A stretch of 64,000 nucleotides of DNA from positions 88,021 through 152,020 of the forward strand of contig JAQTTB010000001.1 in NCBI GenBank assembly GCA_028710985.1, in the 5' to 3' direction. Below are positions 1-58,630 of the stretch, one piece after another; the stretch's first letter is position 1, and each line of letters starts with the position of its first letter. This DNA is from Patescibacteria group bacterium (GTDB taxonomy: Bacteria > Patescibacteriota > Patescibacteriia > JAHJFT01). Made by a program: the position numbers and the translations under genes. Below the pieces are notes generated by a model. It was not told the origin of the DNA and did not search any database. It saw only the letters and a list, made by a program, of their open reading frames with translations.

Positions 1-1093
1 AAGGTCCGACCTCGCCCGAGCAGCTGCCCCAGCGACCCATGGCACAGGTCTGGACGCCGCGAGAGCACTCGCCGAGATCCGTTCCGCATGGCTGGGTACG
101 CCCGTCCGTGCATTCGCAGTTCTCGTCGATCGTGCCGTCGCAGTCGTTGTCCAGCGTGTCGCAGGATTCGGAGTCCGGCATGGTGCCGTCGCAGAGTTGC
201 CAGAACCCACCGAGGCAGGTCTGTTCACCCGTGGTGCAGACACCCATGTCTGTACCACACGGCATATGCGAACCATCGACACACCCGCAGTCCTCGTCGA
301 TAGATCCGTCACAGTCGTTGTCGAGCGCGTCGCATGTCTCGGAATCGGCCATCACGCCGGTGCACAGCTGCCAGAAACCGTCGATGCATTCCTGGCTGCC
401 GGTTGAGCAGATGCCGATATTCGAACCGCAGGGCCGTAGATCGCCCTCGCGGCACTCGCAGTCCTCGTCCACGTACCCGTCGCAGTTGTCGTCCAGGCCG
501 TTGCAGATCTCGGCTTCGGGCGCTATCCCGTCGCAGAGACCCCAGAGGCCGTCGTCCTGGCAGCGCTGCACACCAAAGGTGCACACGCCCTCGGACACGC
601 CGCAGGGTCGCTCCTGACCGAGAGCGCATACGCAACCATTGTCCACACTCCCGTCGCAGTTGTCGTCCACGCCGTTGCAGGCTTCCTCCATATCCGGGTT
701 GATGGACTCGCCCACGCCGGGGGTGTCGTTGCAGTCGTGCAATCCGGTGTAACCATCGCCATCCATGTCCAGAAATGGCAAACAGTCGGGGTCATACGCG
801 TCCGGCAGTCCGTCGTCGTCGTTGTCCAGTCCGTCCCAGCACTCGGCCTGCGTTTCCACGCAAGCGCCGGCTTCGTCCACCGCGATGTCGCAGTCGTTGT
901 CCACGCCGTCGCAGGTCTCGACCGCGGGCACACAGTTCGGGTTCACCACATCGGTGTTCCCGTCGGGCAGGATGCCATCGCCGATCACGTCGGCATCGGC
1001 ATCCGCGTTGCCCTTCTCCATCTGGATGCCGCCGCAGTTCACCGTGAACAGGGCAGCAAGACACAAGCACAGGGTCCGATTGTTTCCCAGCAT
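1..1093 (-). CDS. Secreted/lipoprotein-like Cys- and Asp-rich repeat protein, partial (3' end runs off the window). About 57-aa tandem repeats of the type C-[ND]-G-[LV]-D-[DN]-[ND]-C-D-G-x-[VI]-D-E-x-C...PCG...G.C..G.Q.C..G.W..C, MopE-like putative metal-binding motif.
   Basis: I hand-translated the minus strand from the ATG at 1091-1093 (AAGGAGGA Shine-Dalgarno 5 nt upstream) down to position 2 without meeting a stop. The N-terminus MLGNNRTLCLCLAALFTVNCGG reads as a signal or lipoprotein peptide. The ORF is absent from the track because no stop codon lies inside the window. At least four degenerate repeats are visible; GC3 is about 85%. Confidence 0.6.
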   Translation of the reverse strand, partial: MLGNNRTLCLCLAALFTVNCGGIQMEKGNADADADVIGDGILPDGNTDVVNPNCVPAVETCDGVDNDCDIAVDEAGACVETQAECWDGLDNDDDGLPDAYDPDCLPFLDMDGDGYTGLHDCNDTPGVGESINPDMEEACNGVDDNCDGSVDNGCVCALGQERPCGVSEGVCTFGVQRCQDDGLWGLCDGIAPEAEICNGLDDNCDGYVDEDCECREGDLRPCGSNIGICSTGSQECIDGFWQLCTGVMADSETCDALDNDCDGSIDEDCGCVDGSHMPCGTDMGVCTTGEQTCLGGFWQLCDGTMPDSESCDTLDNDCDGTIDENCECTDGRTQPCGTDLGECSRGVQTCAMGRWGSCSGEVGP

Positions 1094-1420
1094 AGCATCC
1101 TCCTTGTGGTTGTTGCTGGCGTTGAAGCACATCCCGCTACGGGATTGATCGCTCGTCACTCTCTCCATCTTCTTCTCCCTTTCTGGAGTTTATTGCCGTT
1201 TCAGAATTTACAAAATAAAAACACTAGAAGTTTATGTGAAACCCTAGTCAGGCCGCAAAGGTTTGTTGTAATGAACAGATCTTTGCCTGATGAACCATTC
1301 CCTCTCCCGTTTTTCCTCCTATTTCCTCCCAAAACGGTTCATCAAGCTCAAATCTGCCTTATTCTAGCCAAAAATTAAGTCTATAGTATTAACGCAAAAC
1401 CTACATTAATTTAACACCCT

Positions 1421-1449
1421 ATTTTAGCGCAAAATGGCCTTTTTGTCAA
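1421..1449 (-). promoter_or_regulatory. Sigma70-like promoter on the minus strand: TTGACA, 17-nt spacer, TAAAAT. It sits about 320 nt upstream of the gene-1 start.
   Basis: The reverse complement of 1415-1455 reads tgcctcTTGACAaaaaggccattttgcgcTAAAATaggg. A paralogous block lies at 5080-5108. Confidence 0.45.
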
Positions 1450-1615
1450 GAGGCAGACAGGTGAATTATTTTCGCTAATTTAAGCCAAAATAATTTTATC
1501 AAAATTTTTGAGATTTGAGATTTGATTTTTAAGATAAAAAAGTGCCCGCCAAAGTATTGATTTCTCAATAACTTTGACGGGCCTTGTCGCAGGGGTCCCG
1601 GAGGACCCAGAAAGA

Positions 1616-3061
1616 TCAGTCGAAGTCGCTTCTCCAGTCACAGCCGTTACTACCGTAGTTGCGACCGTGATCGCTTCCGAGCGTAGACTTGGACACCACG
1701 TGTCCATCCGGGTAGGTTATGTCCCACTCCAGGATGGGCGACAGGATGTCGGTGTGCACTCCGCTGTCCCACCGGCAGCCCCACATGGAGCCGTCGGACA
1801 CGAGGCTGTAGAAGAAGTTGATGTTGGTGAAGTCCGCGCTGTATGGCAGGCGGAGCTCGCACGTGAACTCGCTCCGGCCGTCGGTGTACCGGCAGTGATG
1901 TCCTGCCGTATCCGAGAGACCGGTCGAGTCGGAGTAGTAGACTCCCGTGGTTCCGAGTCCGGCCGGCCAGATCGTGCCGGTCGCCACGAAGAGCGTCGTG
2001 CGGTCCGAGGTAGACAGGCGGGCGTGAATGCGGAAGGTGTAGAGGTCGCCGGGCTCCGAGCAATCGGGATCCGACATGTCGGTTGAGCCGTCGCAGTCCT
2101 CGTCCAGTCCGCTGGAGCAGACTTCGGACGAAGGGAAGACCGCGCCTTCGCAGTCTCCCGACCAGTCGCCGCTCTCGCAGTACTCGCGGCCGAACTGGCA
2201 CACGCCGAGGTCGCTCGCGGGTCCGCAGTCGCGGTAATCCCCGCTCTCGCACTCGACGTCGCAGTCCGGATCGCCGTCGCAGTCCGGATCTACGCAGTCG
2301 ATGAGCGTGTCGCCATCGTTGTCCACGTGGTCGTCGCAGTCCTCGGGGTCTGTCTCGCACGCCGGGTCGCCATTGCAGTCCGGGTCTACGCAGTCGATGA
2401 GCGTGTCCCCGTCATTGTCGGCGTGATCGTCGCAGTCCTCGTGGCCGCATTCCAGGTCGCGCGTATCGCAGTCCTGGTCGATGCCGTCCTCGCACACTTC
2501 GGTTGCGCCCGGGTGAACCGACGCGTCGGTATCCAGGCAATCGTCGCCGTCTCCGGATCCGATTGCGCAGTGTCCGTCGCCGTCCGCGTCCACGCATTCG
2601 CACTCCGAGTCTTCGCTGTCCACGTCACCGTCGCAGTCATCATCGCGACCGTTGTCGCAGATTTCATTCGCTCCGGGGTGGACGCTCGCGCGCGAGTCGT
2701 CGCAGTCATCGCCGCCATCGTCCTCGCTGCAGTAACCATCGCCGTCCGCGTCGTCGCACTCGCATTCGAGATCGCGGCCGTCGCAGTTCTGGTCGATCAG
2801 GTCATCGCAGACCTCGGTCGCGCCCGGGTGGATGTCCGCCCGGCTGTCGTTGCAGTCGTCGCCTTCCGGCTTGCGGAAGTGTCCGTCGCCGTCGGCATCG
2901 ATGCAACCACAATCGGGGTCGTCGCAGTCCGCGAGCCCGTCGCCGTCGTTGTCGTAGCCGTCGGTGCAGATCTCCTCGTCCGGACCGTGGCCCGGCTCGA
3001 GCATGATATCCTGGCATCCCATGAGGCAGAGAGCAAGGCACACCGTTATGAGCTTCTTCAT
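1616..3061 (-). CDS. Lipoprotein with about eight MopE-like putative metal-binding repeats (C-x-D-x-D-N-D-G-D-[GT]-L-x-D-C-x-D-P-D-C), followed by a roughly 200-aa C-terminal beta-rich domain of unknown function.
   Basis: Track ORF 1616..3250. The internal start MKKLITVCLALCLMGCQD has a lipobox (LMGC) and is preceded by GGAGAAGGAGGACAGG. Motifs such as DDCDDSRASVHPGATEVCDDLIDQNCDGRDLEC recur. The start coordinate is plus or minus 1 nt, taken from the track frame. Confidence 0.65.
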   Translation of the reverse strand: MKKLITVCLALCLMGCQDIMLEPGHGPDEEICTDGYDNDGDGLADCDDPDCGCIDADGDGHFRKPEGDDCNDSRADIHPGATEVCDDLIDQNCDGRDLECECDDADGDGYCSEDDGGDDCDDSRASVHPGANEICDNGRDDDCDGDVDSEDSECECVDADGDGHCAIGSGDGDDCLDTDASVHPGATEVCEDGIDQDCDTRDLECGHEDCDDHADNDGDTLIDCVDPDCNGDPACETDPEDCDDHVDNDGDTLIDCVDPDCDGDPDCDVECESGDYRDCGPASDLGVCQFGREYCESGDWSGDCEGAVFPSSEVCSSGLDEDCDGSTDMSDPDCSEPGDLYTFRIHARLSTSDRTTLFVATGTIWPAGLGTTGVYYSDSTGLSDTAGHHCRYTDGRSEFTCELRLPYSADFTNINFFYSLVSDGSMWGCRWDSGVHTDILSPILEWDITYPDGHVVSKSTLGSDHGRNYGSNGCDWRSDFD

Positions 3062-3300
3062 CCTGTCCTCCTTCTCCTCATTGGAGAAAAATGGTTGATT
3101 TCGGTCATGATTTCGGTCGCAAGATATAAAAAATCCCTCCAATTTTTTTAAACCCTGCGACCGAAACCAGATGCTTGTAAAGAACGCTTTCTTAAGAAAA
3201 TCAATCTTGATTTGCTTGAGGAAGCGGGCGGGAGAGCACGAGATGTGCAACTCCCGCCAAGCTATGTTATTGGGTTGAAGGAACGAACAATGAGGTGGGA

Positions 3301-4833
3301 TTAGAAGAAGAGGATAATCTCGACCCCGACGCTGGCCTGCACGATGCCGGTCCAGCCGCGCACCCCCTGGGGTGTAGTCGGCTCGCTCTCGTCCGCGTTG
3401 ATATTGTACTCGTAGTGATCGAGTCCAATACCCAGAGTTCCGCCGAACCGGACGTATCCCGACACCTTTGCCGGTTTGTTAGGGTCCTTTCCGAAGGGCC
3501 ACGACTTACCGACATCGATGCCGATGAGCGCAATATCGTCCTTGCGCTTCGGGTCCGGGTGGTTCCTGAACCAGAGCTCCTCGTACCCGGTTGCGAGGTG
3601 GTCGTACCCTAGGAAGAATCCGAAGATTCCTTTCGTGCCCGGGAATATTTCCACTCGCCCTCCGGCCAGCATGCCGAAGTTCTCGTCCTCGGTCAGTCCT
3701 CCCATGGGCCCCAGGTGGGCCTTGAAGTTGACCGTGACATTCGATCCGCGGATCTGCAGTATGGTCCACTGCACGACCGCGCCGGCGAAGACTTCGCCGT
3801 TGAACGTCACCATGCCGAGGGCATGGAAGCCGGGACCGGAACCGAGGTTCTTGGCCTTTGCCTTCTTGAGCTCCTCGACGTCGCTCTCCACCTTCGCGAG
3901 GCGCTTCTCCAAGTCAGCGATGCGATCTTCGAGATCGTCCAGTCGCTCTTCCACCTTGGCGAGGCGCTTGTCCAGTCCGTCGAGCCGGGCCTTGAGGGCC
4001 TTGACCTCGGCGGCGAGCGCGTCCAGCTCACCCTTGCTCGCCTTGTCAGCAAGCTGGGCCTGAAGATCGTTCACGATCTCCTGGAACCGCGCGCGGAATG
4101 CCGAGAGCTCCTTGCGAAGCATGTCCAGATCCGCCGGGCTCACACTGCACTCGCACGAAGAAGCCGGAGCCGAGTATGAGTAATCGTAGTGTATCTCACT
4201 CTCCTCGACCTTGGCAGCGCAGCACTTGCCCATCAGGGCTTCGAGCCCCTTGAGCGCGGCCGCGAGATCCTCGATGCGGGTGTCCGTATCCCATGCCCAG
4301 GCGTGAAACTGAACCAGGGTGAGACAGCGCCCGTCCATGGAGCCCTCGATGTCGCCCGGGAGTCCCACTCCATTGGGTACCCACCAGCCGTTCTTCTTGC
4401 CGCACTGGCACCGGTCATCGCACCCCTTGTGCTTCACCGGCTTGTCGTCCGCGACCTTGTCCTTCTTGCAGGACGAGTCCTTCTTGCACGCCGGATCGGC
4501 ACAGTCTTTCTTGCCGTCACCATCGTTGTCCACGCCGTCGTCGCAGTCTTCCACGCCCGGCAGTGAGGGCATGCTCGGAATCGGACACATGTCGTAGCAA
4601 GCACCGAGGTACGCAACGCAGGAATCGAGCTTGCTCTCGCATGCCTGCTTGCCGTTCTCGCAGTCCGCCACGCTGCCGTCGATCGACACGCTGGAAGTCG
4701 TGTTGGCGCACAACTTGCACGCGGCTTCGGGCTTCATCATCGGGATGTCCGATTTCTCGGCATCCTTCTGGCTGAAAGCCGGTGACGCGAACATGCACAT
4801 CGCACACCAGAGCACCATCGTGATCTTCTTCAT
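3301..4833 (-). CDS. Secreted protein with three parts: an N-terminal Cys-rich region carrying one MopE-like motif (DCDDGVDNDGDGKKDCADPAC), a central heptad coiled coil (LDALAAEVKALKARLDGLDKRLAKVEERLDDLEDRIADLEKRLAKVESDVEELKK), and a C-terminal roughly 180-aa domain of alternating-hydrophobic beta strands ending ...VGVEIILFF. The last part could be a beta-barrel, OMP-like.
   Basis: Signal peptide MKKITMVLWCAMCMFASPAFSQ. AGGAGA Shine-Dalgarno. Terminal aromatic Phe-Phe. High GC. Confidence 0.55.
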   Translation of the reverse strand: MKKITMVLWCAMCMFASPAFSQKDAEKSDIPMMKPEAACKLCANTTSSVSIDGSVADCENGKQACESKLDSCVAYLGACYDMCPIPSMPSLPGVEDCDDGVDNDGDGKKDCADPACKKDSSCKKDKVADDKPVKHKGCDDRCQCGKKNGWWVPNGVGLPGDIEGSMDGRCLTLVQFHAWAWDTDTRIEDLAAALKGLEALMGKCCAAKVEESEIHYDYSYSAPASSCECSVSPADLDMLRKELSAFRARFQEIVNDLQAQLADKASKGELDALAAEVKALKARLDGLDKRLAKVEERLDDLEDRIADLEKRLAKVESDVEELKKAKAKNLGSGPGFHALGMVTFNGEVFAGAVVQWTILQIRGSNVTVNFKAHLGPMGGLTEDENFGMLAGGRVEIFPGTKGIFGFFLGYDHLATGYEELWFRNHPDPKRKDDIALIGIDVGKSWPFGKDPNKPAKVSGYVRFGGTLGIGLDHYEYNINADESEPTTPQGVRGWTGIVQASVGVEIILFF

Positions 4834-5079
4834 GGCCTTTCTCCTTGTTTCTTTCTACCCCATCTCTGGGGATTTAGTGTTGTGTCAAAGATCATTTCCG
4901 CGCATATCAAAAATGCACGAGAATCATATTTCCAACACTTTTTTCCGGACAGGCAATGATCAAGTGTTGAGGTTGTTTGGTAAGGATCATGGAGCAAGGA
5001 GGAAATGCTCCAAATCCTTAACCAAACAGCCTCAAAACCCGCCAGACCTGCATGAAACCTATTTCATGAATAACAGGGT

Positions 5080-5108
5080 ATTTTAGCATAAATTTGCTTT
5101 TTTGTCAA
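5080..5108 (-). promoter_or_regulatory. Sigma70-like promoter on the minus strand: TTGACA, 17-nt spacer, TAAAAT. It sits about 240 nt upstream of the start of gene 3301..4833.
   Basis: The reverse complement reads ccTTGACAaaaaagcaaatttatgcTAAAATaccc. This block is roughly 75% identical to the one at 1415-1455. Confidence 0.45.
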
Positions 5109-5232
5109 GGGACGCAAGGCCAAGGCTGAATTTGCACTAGAATATAACGAAAAAAGACTGATGCTCTTTCAGTCTTCTTACCCAAAAAACTATGTTTTGT
5201 CAACCCCTCGACCTTGCTCGGGGCAGGCCTGC

Positions 5233-10257: not shown

Positions 10258-10707
10258 ATGCCCGCCATCAGTATCAACAAAAAAGGCCTGCACAATTACG
10301 AAATCCTGGAACGCTTCGAGGCCGGCATTGTTTTATCCGGCCAGGAGGTTAAATCCGTAAAAGGCGGCCAGATGCACCTGGACGGCGCCTATGTCCGCGT
10401 CCGCGGCGGCGAGGCCTGGCTCGTTGGCGCCGAAATCCCAAAATACCGCTTCGCCGGCCCTCTGCCGGATTACGACGCCCAGCGCACCCGCAAGCTCCTG
10501 TTCCGCAAGCGGGAAATCCGTTATTTAACCGGAAAAACCCAAGAAAAGGGGTTGACACTCGTGCCGGTTTCAGTGTATACTTCACGAAGTAAAATTAAGT
10601 TGGAAATCGGGCTGGCGCGTGGCCGGCAAAGCCATGATAAGCGCGATGTAATGAAAGAACGCGATGTCAAGCGCCAAATTGCCCGAGCCCTTAAAAGGGG
10701 GATGTAA
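10258..10707 (+). CDS. smpB: SsrA-binding protein SmpB.
   Basis: GQEVKSVKGGQMHLDGAYV ... RTRKLLFRKREI ... KIKLEIGLARGRQSHDKRD. It lies directly upstream of the tmRNA gene. Confidence 0.9.
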   Translation: MPAISINKKGLHNYEILERFEAGIVLSGQEVKSVKGGQMHLDGAYVRVRGGEAWLVGAEIPKYRFAGPLPDYDAQRTRKLLFRKREIRYLTGKTQEKGLTLVPVSVYTSRSKIKLEIGLARGRQSHDKRDVMKERDVKRQIARALKRGM

Positions 10708-11087
10708 AAGAATCGATAGGAGATCCTTTCATTGGATGCGAACCAAGGGCGGCCCGAACCTTGCAAATCCTCGGCCAATCAACAAATGCCAATTTCATGG
10801 CGAGAGTGAAGAGCGCTTTCAGCGTTCCTTCATTCCAAATGGCTATCGCATAAAATCGATGGCCCATCCGACCCGGTTAAGCTTGCTCACCGGGAGCCGG
10901 GTGTCATATCTGCAAGCTCGGCTCCTGCCGCTGCTCGCGGCCGGAACTTAAACAACCCAGAGCTCGTTTCGGTGTAATTTTGTCGGATTTCCTACCATCG
11001 AAATTAAAAAATCAAATCCGGACATGTTCGTAGAATTCCAATGGATCGGCTCACTAGACAGGGGTGCGATTCCCCTCATCTCCACCA
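10698..11087 (+). ncRNA. ssrA: tmRNA (ssrA), standard one-piece form.
   Basis: 5' end GGGGAUG...GAAUCGAUAGG is tRNA-like. 3' end GGGGUGCGAUUCCCCUCAUCUCCACCA gives a T-arm plus acceptor strand. The acceptor pairs GGGGAUG with CAUCUCC, including a G3-U70 Ala identity pair. Length about 390 nt, adjacent to smpB; the 5' end overlaps the smpB stop. Confidence 0.65.
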
Positions 11088-23528: not shown

Positions 23529-24565
23529 TGCTGCCCGAATTTAAAACTGTTAAGCATCATCTCGTATGTCCGCCGGAATTCAATCACCGTTTTTGCGCCG
23601 AGATTGAGCGAAATCACAAAAATCCGGCTGTCCTTTTTGAAATACGCGGTCAAGCGATCCGGACTCTGCAAACCGACGAGACCGGCCTTGTTGGTAAATG
23701 TTTTTAATTCCTCGGCATTTACTCCCGGTGCCTGGGCCAAATACCAGTCTTCAAGAGACAAATCCTGCGGATTGTCTTGCGCCAAAACCTGCAGAAACTC
23801 ACCCGACGCCGCTGAAAGAAGCACCGTGTCCGCACCTTTTTCAACATTTGCATTCCAAACCGCGGGATAATAAATCTGATAATCAAAATCTGCGTTTTGA
23901 TAATTTTTCACCAAACCGGATTCGAGCAGAGTAACCGGCGCCGTTCCGCCCGGATTATATAAATGATAAACCTCATTGCCGTCCAAAAATCCATCTTGAT
24001 CAGTATCCGGAATGCGCGAATCGGTTCCGTAGAGCGCCTCTTCAATGTCGGTCAAACCGTCGCTGTCCGCGTCCACTCCTCCGACAATCTCTTCCACAAG
24101 CGGCGGCAAAGTCACTTCCACCGTGGCCGGGAGCGAGATCTCAGCAGTGGCCGGAATGGTAACCTCACGCGTCGCAATCGGCTGTTCAACCGGCTTCGTT
24201 ACTACGGGCGTCGTGGGCTGGGTTTGCTGAACTATGGGCTTCGACGCCGGGACCCGAAGTCCCTGCAAAACGAAAAATATTGAAGCCCCCAGCGCTGCTA
24301 CTATTACAAATATTAAAATAACCCAAAACCACGGGAATTTCTTTTGTTCGCCCGGAGCGGTGGGCTTCCCCGGCTCGAGTCTTGACTCCGAAGGGCGCGC
24401 CGCCGGCACACTCATCTCCGGAATTTTCGCCTCAAGCGTGACGCCGCGAAATTTTTCCGGCATTACGCTGATTTCCGGCTCGCCCGCGCCCCCGACCGCG
24501 ATCGGGGTGACGCTTTTTGGCTTCTCAAATTGCTGCATCTCTGGCTGATCCATAAATTTAAACAC
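23525..24565 (-). CDS. Membrane-anchored, Pro/Thr-rich surface protein with thrombospondin-type-3-like Ca-binding motifs (DSDGLTDIEE...DTDQDGFLDGNE).
   Basis: Transmembrane segment FPWFWVILIFVIVAALGASIFFVL. P/T-rich linker. D-x-D-x-D-G motifs. Confidence 0.4.
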   Translation of the reverse strand: MFKFMDQPEMQQFEKPKSVTPIAVGGAGEPEISVMPEKFRGVTLEAKIPEMSVPAARPSESRLEPGKPTAPGEQKKFPWFWVILIFVIVAALGASIFFVLQGLRVPASKPIVQQTQPTTPVVTKPVEQPIATREVTIPATAEISLPATVEVTLPPLVEEIVGGVDADSDGLTDIEEALYGTDSRIPDTDQDGFLDGNEVYHLYNPGGTAPVTLLESGLVKNYQNADFDYQIYYPAVWNANVEKGADTVLLSAASGEFLQVLAQDNPQDLSLEDWYLAQAPGVNAEELKTFTNKAGLVGLQSPDRLTAYFKKDSRIFVISLNLGAKTVIEFRRTYEMMLNSFKFGQQ

Positions 24566-25200
24566 TATAATCCACTCGGCAGGGCCGGCAATTTGCCTTC
24601 GCCATTTGGATTATAACCATTATCGACTTCGGCTTTATCCGTATAGGTATCACCGTCAGTATCAATATTCAAAGGATTGGTTTTAAAAATAATCACCTCT
24701 TCGCTATCTGAAAGCCCGTCGCCGTCCGTATCCGCGAGATTGGGGTTGGTGCCGGCGATCGCTTCTTCGGTGTCCTCAAGGCCATCTCTATCCGTGTCAA
24801 CCGGCGCGACCGGTTCCCCAGTCCCTTCTTCGGCCGCTGGAATCGTCTCTTCAACCCCCTCTTCAACTATCGGAGCCTGTTCTTCGGCCTCTTCCTCAGG
24901 AGTAATAATCGGCTCTTCTTTGGCCGGTGTAACCTCGATCGGGGTTGAACTCGGAGCAATCAAGAAATACCACGCACCCACACCCGCCGCAACCGCAATT
25001 AAAGTCACCACAAGAATCGTAACGATGGTTTTTCTCGCTCCCCCACTGCTCCGCGGAGCAACCGGCGGCATGGCGCCCGGCGCGACCGCGCGAAGCACCG
25101 GCCGGCCCATTTCGGTCCCCACTGACGGCGCCGACGGCTCAATTTTTTCAAAAATGTCCTCCGTGTCCTGTGGTTGATTTTCGAAAATCATATATTTCAA
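24565..25200 (-). CDS. Membrane-anchored protein with repeated D-x-D-x-D-G-x-x-D Ca-binding-type motifs (DTDRDGLEDTEE, DTDGDGLSDSEE, DTDGDTYTDKAE).
   Basis: Transmembrane segment TIVTILVVTLIAVAAGVGAWYFLI. Start overlaps the stop of the gene upstream. Confidence 0.4.
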   Translation of the reverse strand: MKYMIFENQPQDTEDIFEKIEPSAPSVGTEMGRPVLRAVAPGAMPPVAPRSSGGARKTIVTILVVTLIAVAAGVGAWYFLIAPSSTPIEVTPAKEEPIITPEEEAEEQAPIVEEGVEETIPAAEEGTGEPVAPVDTDRDGLEDTEEAIAGTNPNLADTDGDGLSDSEEVIIFKTNPLNIDTDGDTYTDKAEVDNGYNPNGEGKLPALPSGL

Positions 25201-25226: not shown

Positions 25227-25688
25227 TTAAGACTGCGCCGCTGTCCGCTCCGCGTTGCACAAATTCCGAAATTCTTCGGAACTAAGATACCGGCAATAAT
25301 TAACATTAAGTTCTATCCCGAGATTCGTGTAACAGTCGTCGCGCAGCGCCGGCGTAAAAATCGCCCGGCAGAGATCAATATTTTTATCTTCATACGCGAT
25401 TCCCAGATTTATTTTGTCCCCGCAGTCGCGCCGCGCCGCCAGGTCGGAAATGGACTCGCACTTCGCCGCGTCGCGCGCCCGCCGCGCTTCCATAAATATC
25501 GTTGACCATTCTTCGGTATAAGTAATTTCCGCGGCCGGCGGCTCTTGGGTTTGATTTGTAACTTGAACCTCCGCCGGCAGCTCAACGCTTGCGGCTTTTT
25601 GTTTTAAATAAAATCCCACGCTAAAAGCCAAAAATCCAAAAGCCAGCGCCAGAACCGCGATTATAATAATATTTTTATAATTCATCAT
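25227..25688 (-). CDS. Small N-terminally anchored Cys-containing hypothetical protein.
   Basis: ATGATGA overlap with the stop of the giant gene. Transmembrane segment IIIIAVLALAFGFLAFSVGFYL. Confidence 0.35.
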   Translation of the reverse strand: MMNYKNIIIIAVLALAFGFLAFSVGFYLKQKAASVELPAEVQVTNQTQEPPAAEITYTEEWSTIFMEARRARDAAKCESISDLAARRDCGDKINLGIAYEDKNIDLCRAIFTPALRDDCYTNLGIELNVNYCRYLSSEEFRNLCNAERTAAQS

Positions 25689-28600
25689 AGGCAGATTGGC
25701 GCTGAACAGGCGCAGTTGTTCTCACAGAATATTGAATTAAATACATTTCTAAGAACCGTCCGCGCCTCGGTTTCATTAGAATAATAATTCGCAATCGCGC
25801 CACTTCCCCAACTATCCCCAAAACTTATGAGACTACCATAGCTATAGATTGAATCTTCGAGTCGTGTCCAATTGCTAGGAGCTGACGTGCTGCGCGAGCA
25901 GTTTGAACTTTCTTCTCGTTTGGAAATTAAATAAAGTCTCGGTTTTTCATTTTGAGGAAATTCTTTAAAATAAACCTTGAGGGCGTTCATCGCGTCATTG
26001 TCAGCGTTCGTCCATTGCCCATTCAATGGTGTATTGCTATCAATCACCACCACGAGCCGCAACGCGCCGGTCCGCCATTCATGACCGGCCACCACGTCCA
26101 CGACCGCGCGCGCCCATGACGGCGTTTCATTTAATCCGGTAAAATGCCCGTCGGCCTGACAGTTGCCCAAATCGGACGCCCATTCCCTGCCGCACAAATC
26201 ATGGCTCGAAAGCCCCCCATAGGGTTCCAGCTCGACACTATGGAAATCTTTAAGTTTTCCGCCGATTGGAATTATGTTATCAATACAGCCTTCGATTTCG
26301 GCGGCCACGTCAGATTCATATAAAATATATTTAAAAGAGTTATTTTCATTTGCCAGATAGAATGTTTTTTTAATATCATAGTAAGGAAATCCAGAAATCG
26401 TATAATCAATCAACGGACAAATCATCTTTACATTATTCATAGTATCGCATGTCTTAACGTCAACTGAGTAGCTGGTCATGGTTGTGATAAAGACCGCATC
26501 AACTTTTCCGTCAAAATTTGCGATTCCCCAATCGCATTTTTCTCCATCGGCCTGGTCTTGGTTGCCGTCGCCACAGTATGGTGCATAAGCCGTGCAGGAA
26601 GCATTGCAATAGCGGTCAAACATATCGTTGTAATCGGGCGTGTTGTTCACCCCGGAATCGCAAACCTCGCCCTCGTTTTCAATTACCTTGACGCAACGGC
26701 TGCGCGTCGCGGGGTCTTCACAACGGTAGCAATACCCCAATGACAGCGTGCTATCGCCGGATTGTGCGCAGACTTGATCACCCGGACATGAGGCATCGGA
26801 AACACATGCCTGTAATGGATGTTCAAGCCCCCAATAAGCCTCTCCTTCTTCAGTCCCCGGCACCGGCGGATAAGGAATGCTCTGAATAATCGCATCGCCG
26901 CAGCGCGGACTCTCGCGCTTGGCAATGTGGCAGGTTGAATCGCAATACTCGGCGTTATAACCATAATCACCCGGCGCCTTTGGTGCGATGGCCGGCACAT
27001 GCCTATAAGAAATATTCTGCCCCTGGCAGACTCCTTCGTCATAACCCAAACCTGAAGTCGGTGCCATGCCTTCCCCATAAACAAACCCGCCCGGAGTAAT
27101 TGAGGTTAAAACATTAGGACACGCGTCCGCAGCATATGGATCGCATGATATATAGCCTTCCATTGGGTGATAATTGCCCGAGGTCCCCAGGGTCGGATAC
27201 CAGCAGGCAATCGGACCCTCGTCGCATTCCTCAATTCCCTCTTCTTTTATTCCGTCGCCGCAATAATCACCGGTCACGGTCGCAAATCCGCAATAGTCGG
27301 TGCAGAACGTGCAGGTATCGCCGTAGCGCGGCGTGCACGCTGTGCCATTTGCCGAACCCGCGTCGCAGGCTTCAATGCCCGCGTACTGATAACCGTCGCC
27401 GCAGCGCGATACGCGGCAGGAAACCGCAGTATCGTTTTCCCGGCCCGAAATAATGATGCAGCCGTCGGTGTTATCCGTATTGCCGTCGTCGCACTGTTCA
27501 ACGCCCTCAAGTATGCCGTTGCCGCAAACCCCGTCCGTCACGCAGCTCATGCCCCACGAATTCCATTTACAAGCATCGCTCGCGCAGGTACGCACGTATT
27601 TTAACTGATAGCCAGTACTCGGGTCGATGCCACATGGCAGATTACAGGACGTAAACGATTGTTTGACGCGGTACTCGCAATCCCCATAAGTAATATGATG
27701 GCTGCCAAACGTACAGGTCTCAAGCGTTCCCGGCCAATAATAGCCGGCCGACGATCCGGGACAATTTTCATCCGTGGTACATTTCATCTCCGGATAATAG
27801 CGGCAAACACCATCAGTTGTTTCTTGATGGTCATCGCCTTCGCACTGTTCTTCAGGCTGTAAAATATCATCGCCGCACATCGGACCCGGCACGCGGCAAT
27901 CCCAGCTGCAGCCCGAATCATACTGCCCATTCAAAACTCCGCGGTCGCATTGTTCGGCTCCGGCCATCATTGCGTCGCCGCAATATGCCGCGCTGCCCGC
28001 GCAGTCCGCGCTGCAATGTCCGTATTTTCCGTTATTTGACCCCTCGTCGCACGCCTCGCTCATAAAACAGAATGCGCCCGGGCAGTCGGTATCGCGCTGG
28101 CAGAGCAGGCCGTCAGACGCACCGCCCATGCAGAATCCTTCGCGCACGCCGTTGCCGCAAGCCGGGAGTGAATCCGCGCATTCGCCGTATCCGGATTCGC
28201 CCGAGACCGCCCAGCGGCACGCGCTCCCCTCTTTGACGCAGGAAACCGGCCGCGAGCTCGCCCCGGTGCAGCTTACAAATTTTTTGTCGCCGAGTTCGCA
28301 CTCTTCATCCGGACCGCGCACGCTGTCGCCGCATAAATTATCGTTTGCAAAAGTATTATTCGCGCAGCCCTGGTTCAGAGTTAAATGCGCGGGCAAAGAT
28401 TCCGGAGTCCAGTAATTCGGAAATTCAAGCGATGCGAGCAGTTCGTAATCTCCGGCGCCAAGCGACCGGTATTGATATACCAGGGATTCGGCCGGGCAGA
28501 AGAACCGGAGGCCCGTCGCGTCAAAGCAAGTCGCGCTGTCATAGCCCTCGCCGCAGGCCGCGAATTTATTGACCGGATCAACCGGTAAAACCTGGCCAAG

Positions 28601-31600
28601 CGCGCCGCCGAGCTCAATCTTCCATGACGGCCAGAGACTCGTGGAAAGCGACCGGAGATACGAGCCCGACGCCAAGGCCGGCATGCCGCCGCTCATTGCT
28701 TTATATGATTCAAAACTCGCCTCTAGCGACATGAGATCCGTAATCCTCTTAGTGTCGCGCCGCAGTTTGTCTTTATCCGCGTCGCAGGCCGAACGCGGAT
28801 TTGTCGCAAGACAGTCCAGATTACTGGTGCAGGAAATTATCTTTCCGTCCTCGCTCCGCAAAAAATCGCCGAATTCGTTGCGGCAAACGCGCGCATTATT
28901 TACATTGTCATAGTTCAATACGAAATTATTAAGCATCTGATTAAAAATGCCGACTGTCATTTCGTTCGCGCCTTCGTTGCGCGATAGTATATAAATATTA
29001 GTGAAAAGCGCCGGATCGCCGAATTTATTTGCTGCATTAATATACACGCTCGTGCCGACGCGCACTGCCGGATAACCGTCAACCTCCATTACCTCCGGTT
29101 CGCCGCCAAAGCCCTGGCTCCGATACCACTCTTCAGCCGAAAGATGGCTGGGATTCGGCATAACGCGGAGACCGATGGCGTCGCGCGCCCAAGCCGCGGC
29201 TGGATCCGAATTTTTATAAACCAAAAGATAATCTCTAAGCACCCCGGCCGGCGGAGATTCAACCCTCTTCACCTCCAGCTCGGGCAAAAGTTCGGGCGCG
29301 CTGTCGCGACAATAAGTAGTGGCGAAATGAAAATCAGTCGGATCTGCAAAAATCAGCCACGGATTTTCGCAAAGATTGACCATCGCGGTTACCGAATCGG
29401 TCACCGTCTCGCCGGCGCAGCGGCCCGGCGCAATTTCCGACTCCCCAACGCATAAATTTCGCGGGCAGTCCGAATCACGGGCGCATGCTTTTCCAAAAAA
29501 ATTATTAATTGTAACCTTAGCCTGCGCGCTCACCTGCTCTTCGCCGTTTAGTCCGGCCGGCGTCACCATCTGATCCGCGGCGTCGCTTGTTGTAACGTTG
29601 ACTATATTTTTATCAGTCGTCGTATCGTCTGGAATTGCCGAAGCCCAGCTCCATTCCCATTCGTATTGGCCGGGCGTTTCCTGAATCGCCGTAGGTGAAA
29701 GTCCGGCGCGCCGGCTCACTGCGAGCGCGGAAAAACTCCGCGCGCCATGCGGCTCTTCGAGGCTCGCCGCGTCTTTGGTGTCAAAGAAAAAATCTTCTTC
29801 CGGATCGGCGATGTAAACATAATCAAGTTTGCAAATTTCCGTGCCCGTGCCGAAATAACTGGCGTAATAATTATTCAACGCCACGCCGTCAACCGATTCA
29901 ACGGCTTCTAAAACCCTAATTTGGTACCATGTATCCGATTCTAAAGTTCCTTTATATCTATAATAAACCGATTTACCATCGGCCGAGAGCTCAACTGCGC
30001 CGTCAACGATATCTCCCTCGCAATAATTCAGCGTTTCCGGATCCGGCGTTTCCGGCGCCCGCGCCTGGGCAAATCTGCCCGTAATACCCGCGAATAAATT
30101 TTTAAAACTCTGCCATACGGCACGCCACCACGGCAGATAAGCATCGGCGCGCGTCACAAGCACGGATGTATAATTCACTTCTCCGGCATTACAATTTTGC
30201 GTTTTACCTTTTAACAAAATTATCCGGTTTTTTGTCGTCCCGCCTTGATCGTATTTTAACGAAGCGGCATTCAAAGCCTGCGAAAAATCAATTTTCACCG
30301 CGGCGTTGCGGCATTGATCGTTTGAACTGTTCGCCGGAATCACGGCCGAAACCCGCGGCATGGGATAACAACATGAATTATCCGCAAGTCCGAGCTCCGG
30401 ATCGATGGCGCGGCATTCAGCATCAGTCGTGAATCCGCAAAGAATTGTAAAATTAGCAGTTCCGGTTTTTTCCTCAGTCGCTGCGAAAATTTCCGTTGCC
30501 TGATTGCCCTGTTCATTAACTTCCCCGCGGCCAACCGCCTCGGCGACCTGAACCGGATCAGCGAGTCCGTCACCGTCCACGCTCTCGCAACCCGCCTCTT
30601 CGCCCGTCCCAACCACGCCGTCGCCGCAAAATGACGACATCGCGTATTCTCCCGATGAACCGAGCGCCAAACAATTTTTGCCGCATCCCTGCCTACCGGC
30701 AGGCAGGCTTTCGCCGCCGTCGCAATCCTCTCCCTGTTCCTTGAGGCCGTTGCCGCAGCAATTTGCGACCGTCGGATCGGAGCAGGGATAGGTACCTTCA
30801 TTCAGACACTTATCCGAACAGCCGTCGCCCGAACGCGGCCGGCATTGAGAGTCGCCGATACCCGCGCATTCAAGATTGGAACGGCACGTGGTTCTCATGT
30901 CCGCGCAAATTTTTCCGTTGTCGCAATCCTCACCGAGTTCGCGCTCCGCCGTACCGTTGCCGCAAACTGCGAGCGGTCCAGAATCCGAACCTTCGTTCAA
31001 GCATTCACTTGAGCAGCCGTCGCCGTTCCGACGGTTCATATCGTCGCAATCCTCACCGTCTCCCAAATCCCCGTTGCCGCAAACCGAACCGGCGAGCGTC
31101 GCTCCCTCATTCTGGCAGCCTTCGGAGCAGCCGTCGCCGGAAATATTATTGCCGTCATCGCATTCTTCGTGGCCCGTAATCCAGACGTTGCTCCATGGTG
31201 AAATATATGTCGGATCGTCAATATCTGCGTTTCCACAGGTGCCGCCCGACGCAACCGTCTCCACCGCTTCCCTGAGACACCGCGCCGAACAACCGTCGCC
31301 AACCAAAATATTTTTATCATCGCATTCCTCACCCATCGATATTTCGACATTGCCGTTGCCGCAAACCGCGATATTCATTCTTGAACCCAAGTGCAAACAA
31401 TTTGACTTGCCGCACCATGCCGAAACGCTTGCCGGCGCCGTATCAATCATTCCGGCCGCAAGCAACCGCCCGACATCCTCGTCTCCCGACGACCAGCCCC
31501 AGTTGTAGCCCCACGGATCCAGGCTCTGGCCCTTGGCACTGCATTCATCCGCTTCGCCATAAGGCACGGCCGAATACTGTACTCGCTCCCCCTGGCCACG

Positions 31601-34600
31601 CGTTATTCCGTTGACCGGCGCGACTTCAACACGATCAATGGCGCAAAGCTCAGGCGTATCCTTTGTCCTAAATATCCACGAAAAACTCTCGCCGTAATTT
31701 AAACCCGTCAGGCTCGTGTCGGTATAACTCTTAATTTGATCTGACAAAATTACCCGGTAATACGTTTTTTGTTTGAATACGGCATGATTCACCACAATTT
31801 CTTCCCAGGTTGACATGTCAACCGCGGACACGCCGGTTACGAGATTGCCGCCCGCGAATGAACGGCAATTTTCATTCTCGCATTCCAGAATCTGAATGTT
31901 TCCCGGAGCCATGAGCGAATCCGCGTCCATAAGTGTATTAAAACCAATGCGCACCCCGGCGTTGCGGCAAGCCTCGGTGCAGTTCGGTTCGTAGAAAATC
32001 ACCGTCGGATCAGTAAAATCGATCACCAGCTCTCCGACGCCACTCTTACCCTCCGCTTCCGCGGAGATCGAAACCGGTTCGCCGCGCGTTTCGGTGAGCG
32101 GCAAAACTTCCGCGAGCCAATCACTTATCGGATCCGGCACCGCAATCTGCGCTTTTAAAATATCACTTGCCGACCAGAGCCAGTCATAACCGCTCGGATT
32201 TAGGACAAGACAAATATCATCTGATGAAACCGCGGCCGCGGCATACGGAATCGAATCCTTGGATTTCGCAATTTTGTAATCCGGCGTAACCGCGACTTGT
32301 CCCAAAGCGCACGGCTCACTCGTCGCGCGGGTCTTCCATGAATAGCAATATGCAAAACCCTCACCGCACGCCGAACGCTCTTCCATATTTAAGTTTCCGA
32401 CACTCGCATCACCGCGAAGCGCGGTCGCGAGCTTAACCTCATAAACGCTTGATGAATCAAGCGCCGACGCGGGCAAAATCTGGAAACCCCGGTTGTCGCC
32501 AAGCGCGTTAATTTTTGACGTTTCAACATCAACCGTGGCTGAACATGGATCATCCGCGCCAGCTACGCATTTATAAAATTTAATATTTTCGGTCGTAAAC
32601 CTCGCCGTATCCATGGGCACATTAAATCGCACTGTCGGTACGGCATTGACGCAGGCCTCGCCGCTCCGCGCATCCCAGGGCGACGGCGATGCCGGCAAAT
32701 CCTCGGCCGCGCAGGATTCAATTACCTGCGGCGTAATCGGGATAATTCCGGTTGAAAAACGCCACACGAAAGACGCCTCGCGCGGGCCGACCGCGCATTC
32801 CTCATCCGCGCCGCGGCAGGTGCCGTCGGCGCAGCACTGTTGATCCGCGTCGCAGGCCGCCGGCTCGTCAAGACAGTTCTCAACCCGGAAATTTATGCCG
32901 TTTGACGGCAATCCTCCGGATGAAGTCGCGACCACCGGACCGGTCGCCGCGCCAGCGGGCACAACGGATGATATTTCAGTGTTTGACCATGCATTGATTT
33001 GCGCGTTTTTCAAATTATAAAACATTACCGAACCGGCCGAGCCGCCGAGCCGTTCGCCAAAAATAACAACCGCGGTTCCCGCCGGACCGGCGCTTGGCGA
33101 AATTCGGCAGACTCCCGGCGCGAGCGCCGCTGTCGTCACCGTGAACGCGGCCGCGTCGCTTGTTTTGGCGTCAGAACGCGTCACGCGTATTTCATGCGCG
33201 CCGGCCGATACCGCTCCGCCGTCCGCGTATGCGGCCGGCACTTTAACCGTAATGCTGTCCGCCATCCAAAAATCCGTGCCGCAGGCTTCGGGAAAATTAA
33301 AATCCCCGAGCGCTGATTGGCCCGTGGATGTATTTATAAAAGTCACTTTACCGACCGACGAACCAAAATTACTGCCGCGCAGCGTCACATACTCGCCGAT
33401 CGGACCCATAGCCGGACTCACTTCCGCGATCACCGGTTTGCCGCTGAGCCCCCGCTCGACAACTTGAAAATCTACTCCATTTGAAGAAACTCCCCCGACC
33501 GAAACGCGCACCGGATATTCACCTTCCCCCATCGGCGGAATAGTCGCGCGCACGGCTCCGGCCGCCCACGACTCAATCCGGCCGGCCGGCACTTCGCCGA
33601 CCGTTACCGCGCCTTCAGCCTCACCGAATCCCGAACCCGAAATTGAAATCGCATCGCCGGCTTCTCCCTGGTTCGGATTTATTTCACAGATGCCCGGACG
33701 CGCTATCGTATTCACGAGAAAATCCGCCACCACCGGTCCGCGGGTATTGTCCGTGGTGTCTGCTTCGCCGGCCAATGATACAACTTCAATCGGGCCGCTT
33801 GGCGCTGCCGCCGGGACAGTTATAATAATTTGATTATTTGACCAGACGCTCGTGCATGCCGCAAGCGGAGCTTCAATCTCATCCCCTTCGGCAGCGGCTC
33901 CCAAAAATCTTACTGTTCCGCGCGCAACTCCAAAATATTGACCCGCAATCGTGACAAGCGTACCGGGTGCGCCGTCCAGGGGATCAACACCTTCAATGAG
34001 CGGAAGCGCAACGCAAATTCCGCCCTCGCAATAACCGGATGAACATTCTTCGCTCATAGTGCAGGTTCCACCGGCGCAGGAACCGCAGTATTCCGCGCTC
34101 CCCGAATCCTCACCGCAATCAATGCCGGTCTCTTCGCTATCACGCACGCCATTAAAACAATGTTCAGCCCGAGCAACTACGGAAACCGATTCCGATGTTC
34201 CGCTATTGTCGTCAATATCATAGGCCCGCGCCTGAACCGAATGCCGCGAACCGAGCTCAAGGCCGGTCGTATCCCAGTCAACCTCGGCAGTAAAATTCAT
34301 GGGCGTCGGCGAAGGCGGCCCGTCGCTTGACCAAAGCGCGCCATCAACATCAAAATCCACGACCGAAACCCCGGCATCGTCCGTGGCCTCGGCCTGAAAA
34401 GTTATTATTGAATTTACCGGAATGCCCTGACCGTTATCTGGATAATTTAAAACAACATTCGGACCGGTTACGTCCACGAGATTGCCGGTTGAAAATGAAC
34501 CTTCGCATATCGCGCCGAATCCGCTGCAGCTCACATACATTCCGCCCGAACTCCGAAGTCCGGTCGCTATCGAAACGCGGTATTCAGTATCCGCGTCAAA

Positions 34601-35302: not shown

Positions 35303-37105
35303 CTATCGTTGCTTTACCGGAAAACTCTGACAGGCTCCGGTTGAACGTGAATTTGACGGCTGTTCATCGCAACACCACGGTGCTCCATCCCGATCCTTGG
35401 GACAACCGGGCGTCGCGGCCGGGCTGAAACAATTTTGATAAACATCTTTAACGTCAGAAAATATTTCCGGATAATATTCGGTTTCTTCAAGGAATAAACC
35501 GTGGCGCATACTGGTCAGCGTATGATGAGGAACAAGTTCTCCTTCGGCCGCAAGACCGTCTTCAGTCAAATTCTCGGAATCAAATGAATACCAGATCGCA
35601 AACTCATCTTCCTGATTATCTCCGAGCAGAATATTGGATGAATTCAAACCCGAAAAACTCATGAGCGTATCCCAGATAATTTCAACCGGCAAATCCGGCG
35701 CTACCACGCCTTCGCCGGCTGAAGGATTTACCGACACCACCGACGGCGGTTCAATCAGCACGTTATCCGTCGTTCTGAAAGTCCAAAGATAATTGTCCGT
35801 TGATGGCCCTTCGGCCGTGCCGTTGCCGTTTCCGTCAAGAGAATTGCCCGCCATATCAACCACGCCGTTATACGGGAATATCGCGGCCGGCGCCTCATCC
35901 GACGCCATGCTTGCCGCCTTGACCGTCACGCCAATGTCCGCGTTCCCCGGCAGGCAGAATACCTCTCCACCGCATGAATTAGTGCCGCAAGACTCATCCG
36001 ATAAAAATTCCACAGTTTTGTATTCATTGGAAATGCTGAATGTGCCGAGAATAATTCCGCCGCCCTCGGCCATGAGATTGCTGAAGCGACTCGTATGGCC
36101 GGTCGCGGATGTCGGGTCCACCGGTTCGGAAAAATTAATCTGAATAACCACGTTTTTGGGATATTCCTCGCTCGCGCGCGGGAATACGCTTCTTACTTCC
36201 GGCGGCGTCAAATCCACAAAAGTGCTCACCTGAAAATTCCACTGGTAACCGTCGCTCATTGAGCCCTGAAACGCATCATCACCCTCTGCATCTTTGATAT
36301 TCGGCCCGAGCGAAACGGTATAGGAAACATTTTCACTCGCCGAACCGAGCCACTCGACGGGCTGAAAAACAAAAGTTTTCAAATCGTCCGTGAACCGCAC
36401 GCACGCGCCGGTTTCGCGAAGCGCGCTTCCCTCTCCGTCGGCCGTCCTGTATATCTTGACGTTCGCGCCGTTAAGCAAGTCACTCGCCGTGTCGTCGCTC
36501 ACATCAAGCGGCGTATCATTGTCATCGTAGCCGGAAATAAACGATTCAATGGACATTTCTTTTTTAAAAGTCACGAGTATCCTGGTATTTCGCGGAATAT
36601 CGGTCGCCCCGCGCGCCGGATAATGATAGCTGATCACGCCGTTGCCAAGCGCGCTTGAGAACTGCTCGTATGTCGCCGGCGGCCCGGACGGCCCGCCTCC
36701 GGGACCAAAAATTCCGCCCTCACCCAAGAGCGCGGAAAATACAAAATAGGTAATCGCCCAGGACATAAGAATGATTGCAAGCCCGATCGCCGCGTTGGTC
36801 AAAACCTTTTTCGCTTTTTCTACCCTTTCTTCAACTCCGCCGGCCGTCATCCATAAAAATCCTCCGTACAGCGTGAGAGACAAAGCGATCACCGCGAGCA
36901 AACCGAGAGCGACATTGATAATCCGCGCGACAATCACCCGGATATCGGTCTGCGACGCGCCGATGGCTTCGCCGACCGGCTCCAAACCCACATCAACCGC
37001 TCCGACTATCGTCGGAGTCGCGAAAATAAAAAAGAACGCAAAGCTTATTACTAAAACAAATATAAGCCTCGCGTTCTTCTCGAAATTTTGTTTTCCTTTC
37101 CGCAT
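35303..37105 (-). CDS. 600-aa paralog of the giant protein's N-terminal region: the same pilin-like two-helix module and Gly-rich linker, followed by about three Ig-like domains.
   Basis: AVDVGLEPVGEAIGASQTDIRVIVARIINVALGLLAVIALSLTLYGGFLWMTAGG...KKVLTNAAIGLAIILMSW aligns residue-for-residue with the giant protein's N-terminus. Its stop codon abuts the giant gene's ATG. Confidence 0.75.
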   Translation of the reverse strand: MRKGKQNFEKNARLIFVLVISFAFFFIFATPTIVGAVDVGLEPVGEAIGASQTDIRVIVARIINVALGLLAVIALSLTLYGGFLWMTAGGVEERVEKAKKVLTNAAIGLAIILMSWAITYFVFSALLGEGGIFGPGGGPSGPPATYEQFSSALGNGVISYHYPARGATDIPRNTRILVTFKKEMSIESFISGYDDNDTPLDVSDDTASDLLNGANVKIYRTADGEGSALRETGACVRFTDDLKTFVFQPVEWLGSASENVSYTVSLGPNIKDAEGDDAFQGSMSDGYQWNFQVSTFVDLTPPEVRSVFPRASEEYPKNVVIQINFSEPVDPTSATGHTSRFSNLMAEGGGIILGTFSISNEYKTVEFLSDESCGTNSCGGEVFCLPGNADIGVTVKAASMASDEAPAAIFPYNGVVDMAGNSLDGNGNGTAEGPSTDNYLWTFRTTDNVLIEPPSVVSVNPSAGEGVVAPDLPVEIIWDTLMSFSGLNSSNILLGDNQEDEFAIWYSFDSENLTEDGLAAEGELVPHHTLTSMRHGLFLEETEYYPEIFSDVKDVYQNCFSPAATPGCPKDRDGAPWCCDEQPSNSRSTGACQSFPVKQR

Positions 37106-58584: not shown

Positions 58585-58630
58585 AAAAAACCCGCCCTGA
58601 TACCCTGCGGCCCTGCCGCAGGGGCGGGTT
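58585..58630 (-). terminator. Rho-independent terminator of asnS.
   Basis: Minus strand: acccgccc...gggcgggt then UUUUUU. Overlaps the stop codon. Confidence 0.55.

Follow-up and report, generated by a model that had tools for sequence, protein, structure and literature searches.

The window analysed here, a stretch of 64,000 nucleotides from a contig of a Patescibacteria group bacterium (assembly GCA_028710985.1, contig JAQTTB010000001.1, positions 88,021 to 152,020), encodes a 510-residue protein whose C-terminal ~180 residues are confidently predicted to form a beta-barrel of the outer-membrane protein (OMP) type rather than a beta-sandwich. The coding sequence is the open reading frame (ORF) at 3301..4833 on the minus strand, and all coordinates given below for its parts, its leader and the other genes of a three-gene cassette refer to this strand. 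From the N-terminus onwards the protein consists of an export signal, a Cys-rich head, a coiled-coil stalk and the C-terminal barrel. We read it, with a probability of about one half, as a rod-shaped protein of the envelope in one clade of Patescibacteria, exported by the Sec route. A membrane-embedded barrel, a stalk on the cis side and a head that engages lipoproteins would together make up an envelope-spanning tether.

NCBI lists the exact protein under the accession MDD4994921.1 (PHW53_00370, annotated as a hypothetical protein of a Patescibacteria group bacterium), and the contig that carries it is 744,538 bp long. The gene and its neighbours were also assembled independently from two other sequencing runs. 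Because of the exact database entry, the independent assemblies and the existence of homologues with the same architecture, the ORF of this stalked barrel protein is a real gene and not an artefact of ORF calling.

The C-terminal domain is predicted to be an eight-stranded barrel

The C-terminal domain comprises residues 329-510 (182 residues; 3304..3849). It contains 17% Gly, is rich in aromatic residues and ends in the tail ...VGVEIILFF. Using an alignment of five sequences, AlphaFold2 (AF2) predicted eight strands of 12-21 residues at positions 330-343, 348-362, 366-379, 387-398, 404-415, 430-447, 458-478 and 489-509. The mean predicted local distance difference test score (pLDDT) was 84.1 and the predicted template modelling score (pTM) 0.77, and all five models reached a pLDDT of ~83-84. 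An independent AF2 run with the full-length protein returned the same eight strands, with a pLDDT of 75-91 over most of the domain. The predicted barrel is closed and antiparallel, has an even number of strands and carries both termini on one side. The connections measure 3, 5 and 10 residues on the side of the termini and 4, 7, 14 and 10 residues on the far side.

Comparison of this model with known structures using Foldseek gave best matches that are nearly all OMPs, led by OmpW and AlkL, but the matches are weak: the best E-value was 2.4e-3, none was at or below 1e-3, and the TM-scores were low. These low similarities and the alignment of five sequences only would also be expected if the barrel were a modelling artefact and the domain had a different beta-rich structure, for instance a sandwich or a region of fibrous or amyloid-like character. 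Against this explanation stand the agreement of the five models, the pTM value and the recurrence of the eight strands in the independent full-length run, and in addition the strand periodicity, the conserved glycines and the terminal aromatic residue are already apparent in the raw alignment. We consider such an artefact improbable. The earlier note, made from the sequence of this stretch, had proposed an OMP-like barrel at the C-terminus and had named a soluble beta-sandwich as the opposite outcome; AF2 gave the barrel, and the Foldseek matches and the C-terminal motif point in the same direction.

The C-terminal motif is an aromatic last residue preceded by alternating hydrophobic positions. 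Counted from the C-terminus, positions 1, 3, 5, 7 and 9 are F, L, I, V and V in the window protein. The corresponding residues are W, F, F, A and C in the homologue P0003 (...FSFQW) and W, I, Y, V and F in P0004 (...YSITW). P0002 matches the alternating pattern with one extra C-terminal Asn, and P0005 has F as last residue with an unclear register of the hydrophobic positions.

The two faces of the predicted strands differ strongly in composition. Face one consists to 68% of aliphatic or aromatic residues and to 6% of charged residues, whereas face two contains 38% Gly, Ser or Thr and 17% charged residues with buried charge pairs, as in the narrow lumens of OMPs. Face composition alone does not fix which face points inward, and the strands could also belong to a soluble or peripheral lipid-binding barrel of eight strands, similar to YceI or the lipocalins, that sits on the stalk and carries lipids or isoprenoids in a hydrophobic interior. 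It would suit this idea that the leading matches OmpW and AlkL themselves channel hydrophobic substrates, and that bacteria of the candidate phyla radiation (CPR) cannot make fatty acids and have a documented dependence on host lipids. On the other hand, a face with so much Gly, Ser and Thr and 17% charge is atypical of a solvent-exposed surface, the conserved terminal aromatic residue with hydrophobic residues at positions 3, 5, 7 and 9 fits membrane barrels better than lipid carriers, and no Pfam match to YceI or the lipocalins was found. We regard a lipid carrier as unlikely, and among the alternatives as the one that deserves most weight.

Sequence searches did not assign the domain to a family. 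None of the five barrel domains had a Pfam match at E <= 10, the full-length window protein had no match to an OMP model in NCBIfam, and a profile search against the PDB sequences with the barrel yielded nothing relevant. The barrel family lacks annotation. Neither Pfam nor NCBIfam has a model for it, its proteins are labelled hypothetical protein, and it has very few members. Matches of the full-length protein to Pfam, NCBIfam and PDB entries over residues ~230-330 (reovirus sigma-1, HA2, SMC, Rad50) were rejected as generic coiled-coil noise that does not indicate homology. C-terminal sorting signals of the LPXTG/sortase, PEP-CTERM and type IX secretion system (T9SS) kinds were also considered and dismissed; the protein contains no such motif and has no corresponding Pfam match.

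Export signal, head and stalk

Residues 1-22 (4768..4833) form a Sec signal peptide with the typical n-h-c organisation. Read by eye, it comprises MKKITMVLWCAMCMFASPAFS and is cleaved before Q (AFS/Q site, next residues QKD). The cleavage sites read in the same way from homologues are AEA/G, AYA/G and ASA/G, and a gene for signal peptidase I is present in the window.

The Cys-rich head extends from residue 23 to 232 (4138..4767), and the full-length AF2 run gave no resolved fold for it (pLDDT <50). Between residues 39 and 229 the protein contains 19 Cys; two more are located in the signal peptide. Residues 55-83 (4585..4671) are predicted to be a helix in which C58, C65, C72 and C79 follow each other at a distance of exactly 7 residues. 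This spacing is kept in the aligned homologues P0002, P0003 and P0005, and it looks like the interchain disulfide ladder of a coiled coil. Residues 94-122 (4468..4554) resemble a single acidic double-disulfide repeat of the MopE/teneurin-like type; the match to NF033662 (E 2.8e-8, 33.3 bits, one copy) lies under the curated cutoff of 41 bits, and weak matches to teneurin cover the same region.

The head is followed by the stalk, an unbroken helix of 93 residues predicted for positions 233-325 in the full-length AF2 run (3859..4137), with a length of ~14 nm. Regular heptads, eight in number, are found at ~271-323 with L/V/I at position a, L/V at d, R at g and E/D at e. The first strand of the barrel starts about 4 residues past the end of this helix (helix to 325, strand from 330). 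The earlier note's description of the protein as a Cys-rich head, a coiled coil of roughly 90 residues and a C-terminal domain of ~180 residues ending in Phe-Phe therefore agrees with the sequence and with the predicted boundaries.

Because the heptads combine Arg at g with Glu at e, and because of the Cys ladder, the stalk chains probably associate in parallel into a homo-oligomer that is held together by disulfides between the heptad-spaced Cys. Both termini of the barrel lie on one side and its lumen would be too narrow for a helix, which places the stalk and the head on the cis side. In our preferred reading the 182 C-terminal residues would fold into an amphipathic eight-stranded barrel of the OmpW/OmpA/OmpX type, which would be embedded as an anchor in a lipid or hydrophobic layer outside the cytoplasmic membrane, and the ~14 nm stalk with the acidic, disulfide-rich head would project from it inward, to the cytoplasmic membrane of the same cell.

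A cassette of the barrel gene and two lipoprotein genes

The gene downstream of the barrel protein (1616..3061) encodes a lipoprotein with the lipobox LMGC, MopE-type acidic double-disulfide repeats and a conserved C-terminal domain. Its scores, 96 bits for PF11617 and 61 bits for NF033662, make it a member of this repeat family. A MopE-type lipoprotein gene is located downstream of the barrel gene in every homologous locus that extends that far. The third gene of the cassette (1..1093, GC3 0.80, GC3 being the G+C content at third codon positions) runs off the start of the window. Its product (MLGNNRTLCLCLAALFTVNCGG...), which was read from the sequence without a family scan, is a Cys/Asp-rich lipoprotein with the lipobox TVNC. 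Such a third Cys-rich gene is present in the window and in the loci L010 and L011, and the contigs of the other assemblies end before it. Several independent assemblies break inside the Cys-rich lipoprotein genes next to the barrel gene on its downstream side (window 1-1093 and the contig ends of L001, L006, L011 and L012), probably due to internal repeats.

In the proposed mechanism the head would engage the two co-encoded Cys/Asp-rich lipoproteins, which would be held by their lipid anchors in the cytoplasmic membrane. The cassette as a whole may then provide an abundant tether that spans the envelope and works in a similar way to OmpM/SlpA or Lpp/OmpA with unrelated domains.

A small family at a conserved locus

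An exhaustive phmmer search with the barrel against 1.84 billion cluster representatives retrieved four relatives only, with E-values from 7e-16 to 3e-5. In all four, a signal peptide, a Cys-rich head, a coiled coil and the barrel follow each other, and the head contains a conserved MDGxC motif. P0004 is an N-terminally truncated gene call, of which P0008 is the version with 535 residues, and P0005 is also labelled Patescibacteria by NCBI. No relative of the protein was found in the phage and plasmid collections. Scans of the contigs of GTDB species representatives with the window protein and P0005 detected no relative either; the genomes considered here are not in that set. The only hit of a metagenome scan was P0003 itself, this time on a contig of greater length. 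A word-indexed search with the barrel alone or with the five-sequence alignment found nothing, the query included, and is uninformative for this family.

Wherever flanking sequences exist, the gene order is the same: SmpB, an AI-2E transporter, three small membrane proteins, a PDZ protease, a Wzz-like protein, the barrel protein and the MopE-type lipoprotein. Conservation of the locus in related Patescibacteria extends over more than 15 kb. In L011 the common order even runs on to IF3, L35, L20 and pyruvate phosphate dikinase, as in the window. A comparison of the window with L006 and L009 revealed that the barrel protein is 25-31% identical between the genomes, in contrast to 47-75% for the flanking Wzz-like, PDZ, SmpB and AI-2E proteins, which means that the barrel protein changes at a much higher rate than the proteins around it. 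In the same comparison, identity amounts to 67% in the C-terminal domain of the downstream lipoprotein.

Since related Patescibacteria carry genes of this architecture in the same syntenic position, the gene is native to this group and not foreign.

Codon usage, promoters and the leader

The three genes of the cassette have a GC3 of 0.80-0.83, compared with 0.41-0.65 in 28 other genes of the window, and the difference is confined to the coding regions. Their synonymous codon preferences are reversed relative to those of the other window genes: AAG accounts for 92% vs 31%, TTC for 97% vs 34%, TAC for 100% vs 36% and CAC for 91% vs 36%. A GC3 excess was also observed at the homologous loci L003, L004, L005, L006 and L009, although it is weaker in L006 (0.67 vs 0.56-0.58). 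The excess is most pronounced at loci with a background GC3 of only 0.42-0.52. Long overlapping ORFs on both strands and in other frames were noticed in the first part of the window (1-5000, e.g. 39-617, 2327-3151 and 3476-4063); they are by-products of GC3-rich coding sequence and not genes.

Such a different codon dialect is what one would expect after a recent acquisition from a diderm of high GC content, for example a myxobacterium, in which Cys/Asp repeats are common, and the barrel would then be a leftover without a destination. The earlier note had kept this option in view, and it did not hold up. Several related Patescibacteria share the locus, its gene order and the promoter motif. 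Near-consensus promoter motifs of the host type and a conserved 5' untranslated region (5' UTR) are found in the cassette's intergenic regions, and neither the 1.84 billion representatives nor the phage and plasmid collections yielded a homologue outside the clade. Furthermore, the GC3 excess is present at all homologous loci found, in backgrounds down to 0.42 and between proteins of ~30% identity, so that amelioration should have erased a donor signal. A foreign origin is therefore very improbable.

The traces of an ancient transfer would have been lost through amelioration by this time, so the GC3 bias of the cassette is being maintained. It may stem from translational selection on products of very high abundance or from a process associated with recombination.

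Upstream of the barrel gene, ~250 nt from the start codon, we identified a promoter-like site with a near-consensus extended -10 element (5080..5108, TTGACA-17-TGCTAAAAT). A second copy of the motif is located upstream of the third cassette gene (1421..1449). The two sites share the nearly identical motif CTTGACAAA...TGnTAAAATA...TGTTA, 200-330 nt upstream of the respective gene. The motif is also present upstream of the barrel gene in L006 (1851), L011 (9675) and L009 (6102); in L009 it lies 660 nt from the truncated gene call. These near-identical motifs suggest co-regulation of the cassette and long leaders. A terminator-like hairpin after the upstream Wzz-like gene (5151..5179) parts the cassette from the housekeeping genes.

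The leader of the barrel gene contains a hairpin (4967..5035) of ~26 bp with a CCUCC-rich pyrimidine loop, which resembles an anti-Shine-Dalgarno sequence, and the folding of the whole leader has a z-score of -5.5 vs shuffled controls. A comparison of four loci showed that the hairpin is well conserved, with compensatory double changes in eight pairs, while the encoded proteins are 25-42% identical. The homologous hairpins are located at ~1925-1990 in L006, ~9762-9830 in L011 and ~540-605 in L010. At the gathering thresholds of Rfam the hairpin had no match. Major envelope proteins such as OmpA and S-layer proteins typically combine strong promoters with long structured leaders and biased codons, and we use these proteins as an analogy.

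The envelope of the host and the place of the barrel

Cells of the CPR imaged by cryo-TEM have a periodic surface layer, lack an outer membrane and are attached to Gram-negative hosts (PMC7906910). The presumably monoderm context, on which the earlier note had built its anomaly, is consistent with this description and with the NCBI label of the genome as Patescibacteria. In the literature the phylum is treated as monoderm, with both the outer membrane and OmpM lost. A Pfam scan of the gene-like window ORFs with a length of at least 150 residues detected no family of diderm-type envelope biogenesis. In general, the window has the look of a CPR genome, with giant surface proteins headed by a T4SS_pilin domain, an LCP-family protein and compact housekeeping genes; the pilin-headed giants and the LCP protein are typical of monoderm envelopes.

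Candidates for the layer that holds the barrel are an own outer layer containing lipids, the outer membrane of a host, the cell's own cytoplasmic membrane, or a packing into the proteins of the surface layer. With respect to the second candidate, the protein could be an attachment anchor of an episymbiont: the barrel would insert into the outer membrane of the basibiont, the stalk would bridge the two cells, and the lipoproteins would hold the head. By the predicted topology, insertion from outside leaves both termini, and hence the stalk, facing the symbiont. Attached CPR cells have a dense line at the interface with their Gram-negative hosts, and the low identity of the barrel protein (25-31%) compared with the flanks (47-75%) is the pattern expected of a surface that interacts with a host. 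It is established, on the other hand, that spontaneous insertion through the lipopolysaccharide (LPS) leaflet is energetically unfavourable and that the beta-barrel assembly machinery (BAM) of the host cannot be reached from outside. The strong promoter signals of a constitutive type suggest an abundant structural protein instead, and no host has been identified. An anchor in the host membrane appears to us doubtful, somewhat more so than the lipid carrier.

Several points weigh against the envelope tether that we prefer. Imaged Patescibacteria have no outer membrane, and the outer membrane and OmpM are regarded as lost, which leaves no obvious membrane for the barrel. The barrel shows no sequence similarity to any OMP family, only five sequences stand in the alignment behind its model, and its outward-pointing face was assigned from composition and not from the coordinates of the model. 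The anomaly itself would depend on this structure prediction from a shallow alignment and on the assumption that the genome lacks BamA; no BamA-like insertase was seen within the 64 kb, which is weak evidence since the window covers ~9% of the contig. The proposed partnership with the lipoproteins is read from gene adjacency and the shared repeat type only. Finally, ribosomal-protein genes in the window do not have the GC3 bias of the cassette, so that high expression is an uncertain reading of this bias.

If the protein is a genuine and abundant OMP-type barrel on a disulfide-stapled stalk, it would point either to an unseen outer layer containing lipids, with a diderm-type tether, retained as a relic or invented anew, that is assembled without a recognised BAM, or to an anchor in the outer membrane of a host. 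We put this forward tentatively, as a possibility rather than an expectation.

The envelope of the CPR/Patescibacteria and their attachment to hosts are poorly understood, and models of the transition between one and two membranes treat Patescibacteria as having lost the outer membrane together with its tethers. A predicted OMP-type barrel with an OmpM-like layout, a fixed locus and signs of high expression is a concrete molecule that can be tested. Each of the placements, whether in an outer lipid layer, in a host membrane, in the cytoplasmic membrane or as a soluble lipid carrier, would, if true, be new for the cell biology of the CPR.

Other genes in the window

The pilin-headed proteins are a protein of 3205 residues (25685-35302) and an adjoining one of 600 residues (35303-37105), both on the minus strand. 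Each begins with a T4SS_pilin-like segment that is followed by Ig-like domains: Big_5 is present in both, and TIG and Big_7 occur besides in the 3205-residue giant. Just downstream of this pair, at 24565-25200, a protein with bacterial TSP3 repeats is encoded. Two adjoining genes for class II aminoacyl-tRNA synthetases of the Asp/Lys/Asn type are located at 57103-58506 and 58630-59925 (minus strand), and both products consist of tRNA-synt_2 and an OB anticodon-binding domain. The tmRNA gene (10698-11087, plus strand) directly follows smpB (10258-10707) and overlaps its 3' end by ~10 nt.

Comparison with known systems

Several families share single features with the protein. The MopE-type or acidic double-disulfide repeat (PF11617, NF033662) occurs once in the head, with a score under the cutoff, and outside this repeat the protein has no relation to these families. 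Soluble barrels of the YceI/lipocalin type gave no family match, and the composition of the strand faces and the C-terminal motif fit a membrane barrel better. The trimeric autotransporters of the YadA family have in common with the protein the principle of head, stalk and anchor and a stalk formed by a coiled coil. In these autotransporters each chain contributes four strands to a barrel of 12 strands and the stalk passes through the pore to the outside, whereas a complete barrel of eight strands per chain, with both termini on the same side, is predicted here. None of the anchor, head and stalk motifs of YadA was matched in Pfam. The analogy to trimeric autotransporters drawn in the earlier note had to be given up for this reason.

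With respect to the fold, the model is closest to the small OMPs. OmpW, NspA, the N-terminal domain of OmpA/OprF, TtoA, PagL and OmpX have, like the predicted barrel, long tilted strands and short turns on the side of the termini, and the small eight-stranded OMPs share with it the aromatic C-terminal residue with alternating hydrophobic positions. Unlike these proteins, the window protein has no profile match in Pfam, NCBIfam or the PDB, carries an N-terminal stalk and head, and comes from a presumed monoderm.

With respect to the architecture, the closest systems are OmpM and SlpA of the diderm Terrabacteria (Veillonella OmpM1, Deinococcus SlpA), which also consist of a signal peptide, an N-terminal anchoring domain, a coiled coil and a barrel. 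In both cases the stalk is positioned directly before the barrel, in the window protein with the helix at 233-325 and strand 1 at 330. The stalk of OmpM/SlpA leaves the barrel at the periplasmic side, which is the side of the termini, and the same arrangement would apply here. Important differences exist as well. No match to the S-layer homology (SLH) domain with which OmpM/SlpA bind modified peptidoglycan was found in Pfam or NCBIfam, and a Cys-rich acidic head takes its place. Tethers of this kind have porin-size barrels that form trimers, with 16 strands in OmpM and a much larger barrel in SlpA, compared with the eight strands predicted here. There is no sequence similarity between the proteins, and both OmpM and the outer membrane are reported as lost from the phylum to which the window protein belongs. 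Taken together, the comparison and the structure predictions suggest an OMP-type barrel on a coiled-coil tether that would be built from unrelated sequence in a presumed monoderm phylum.

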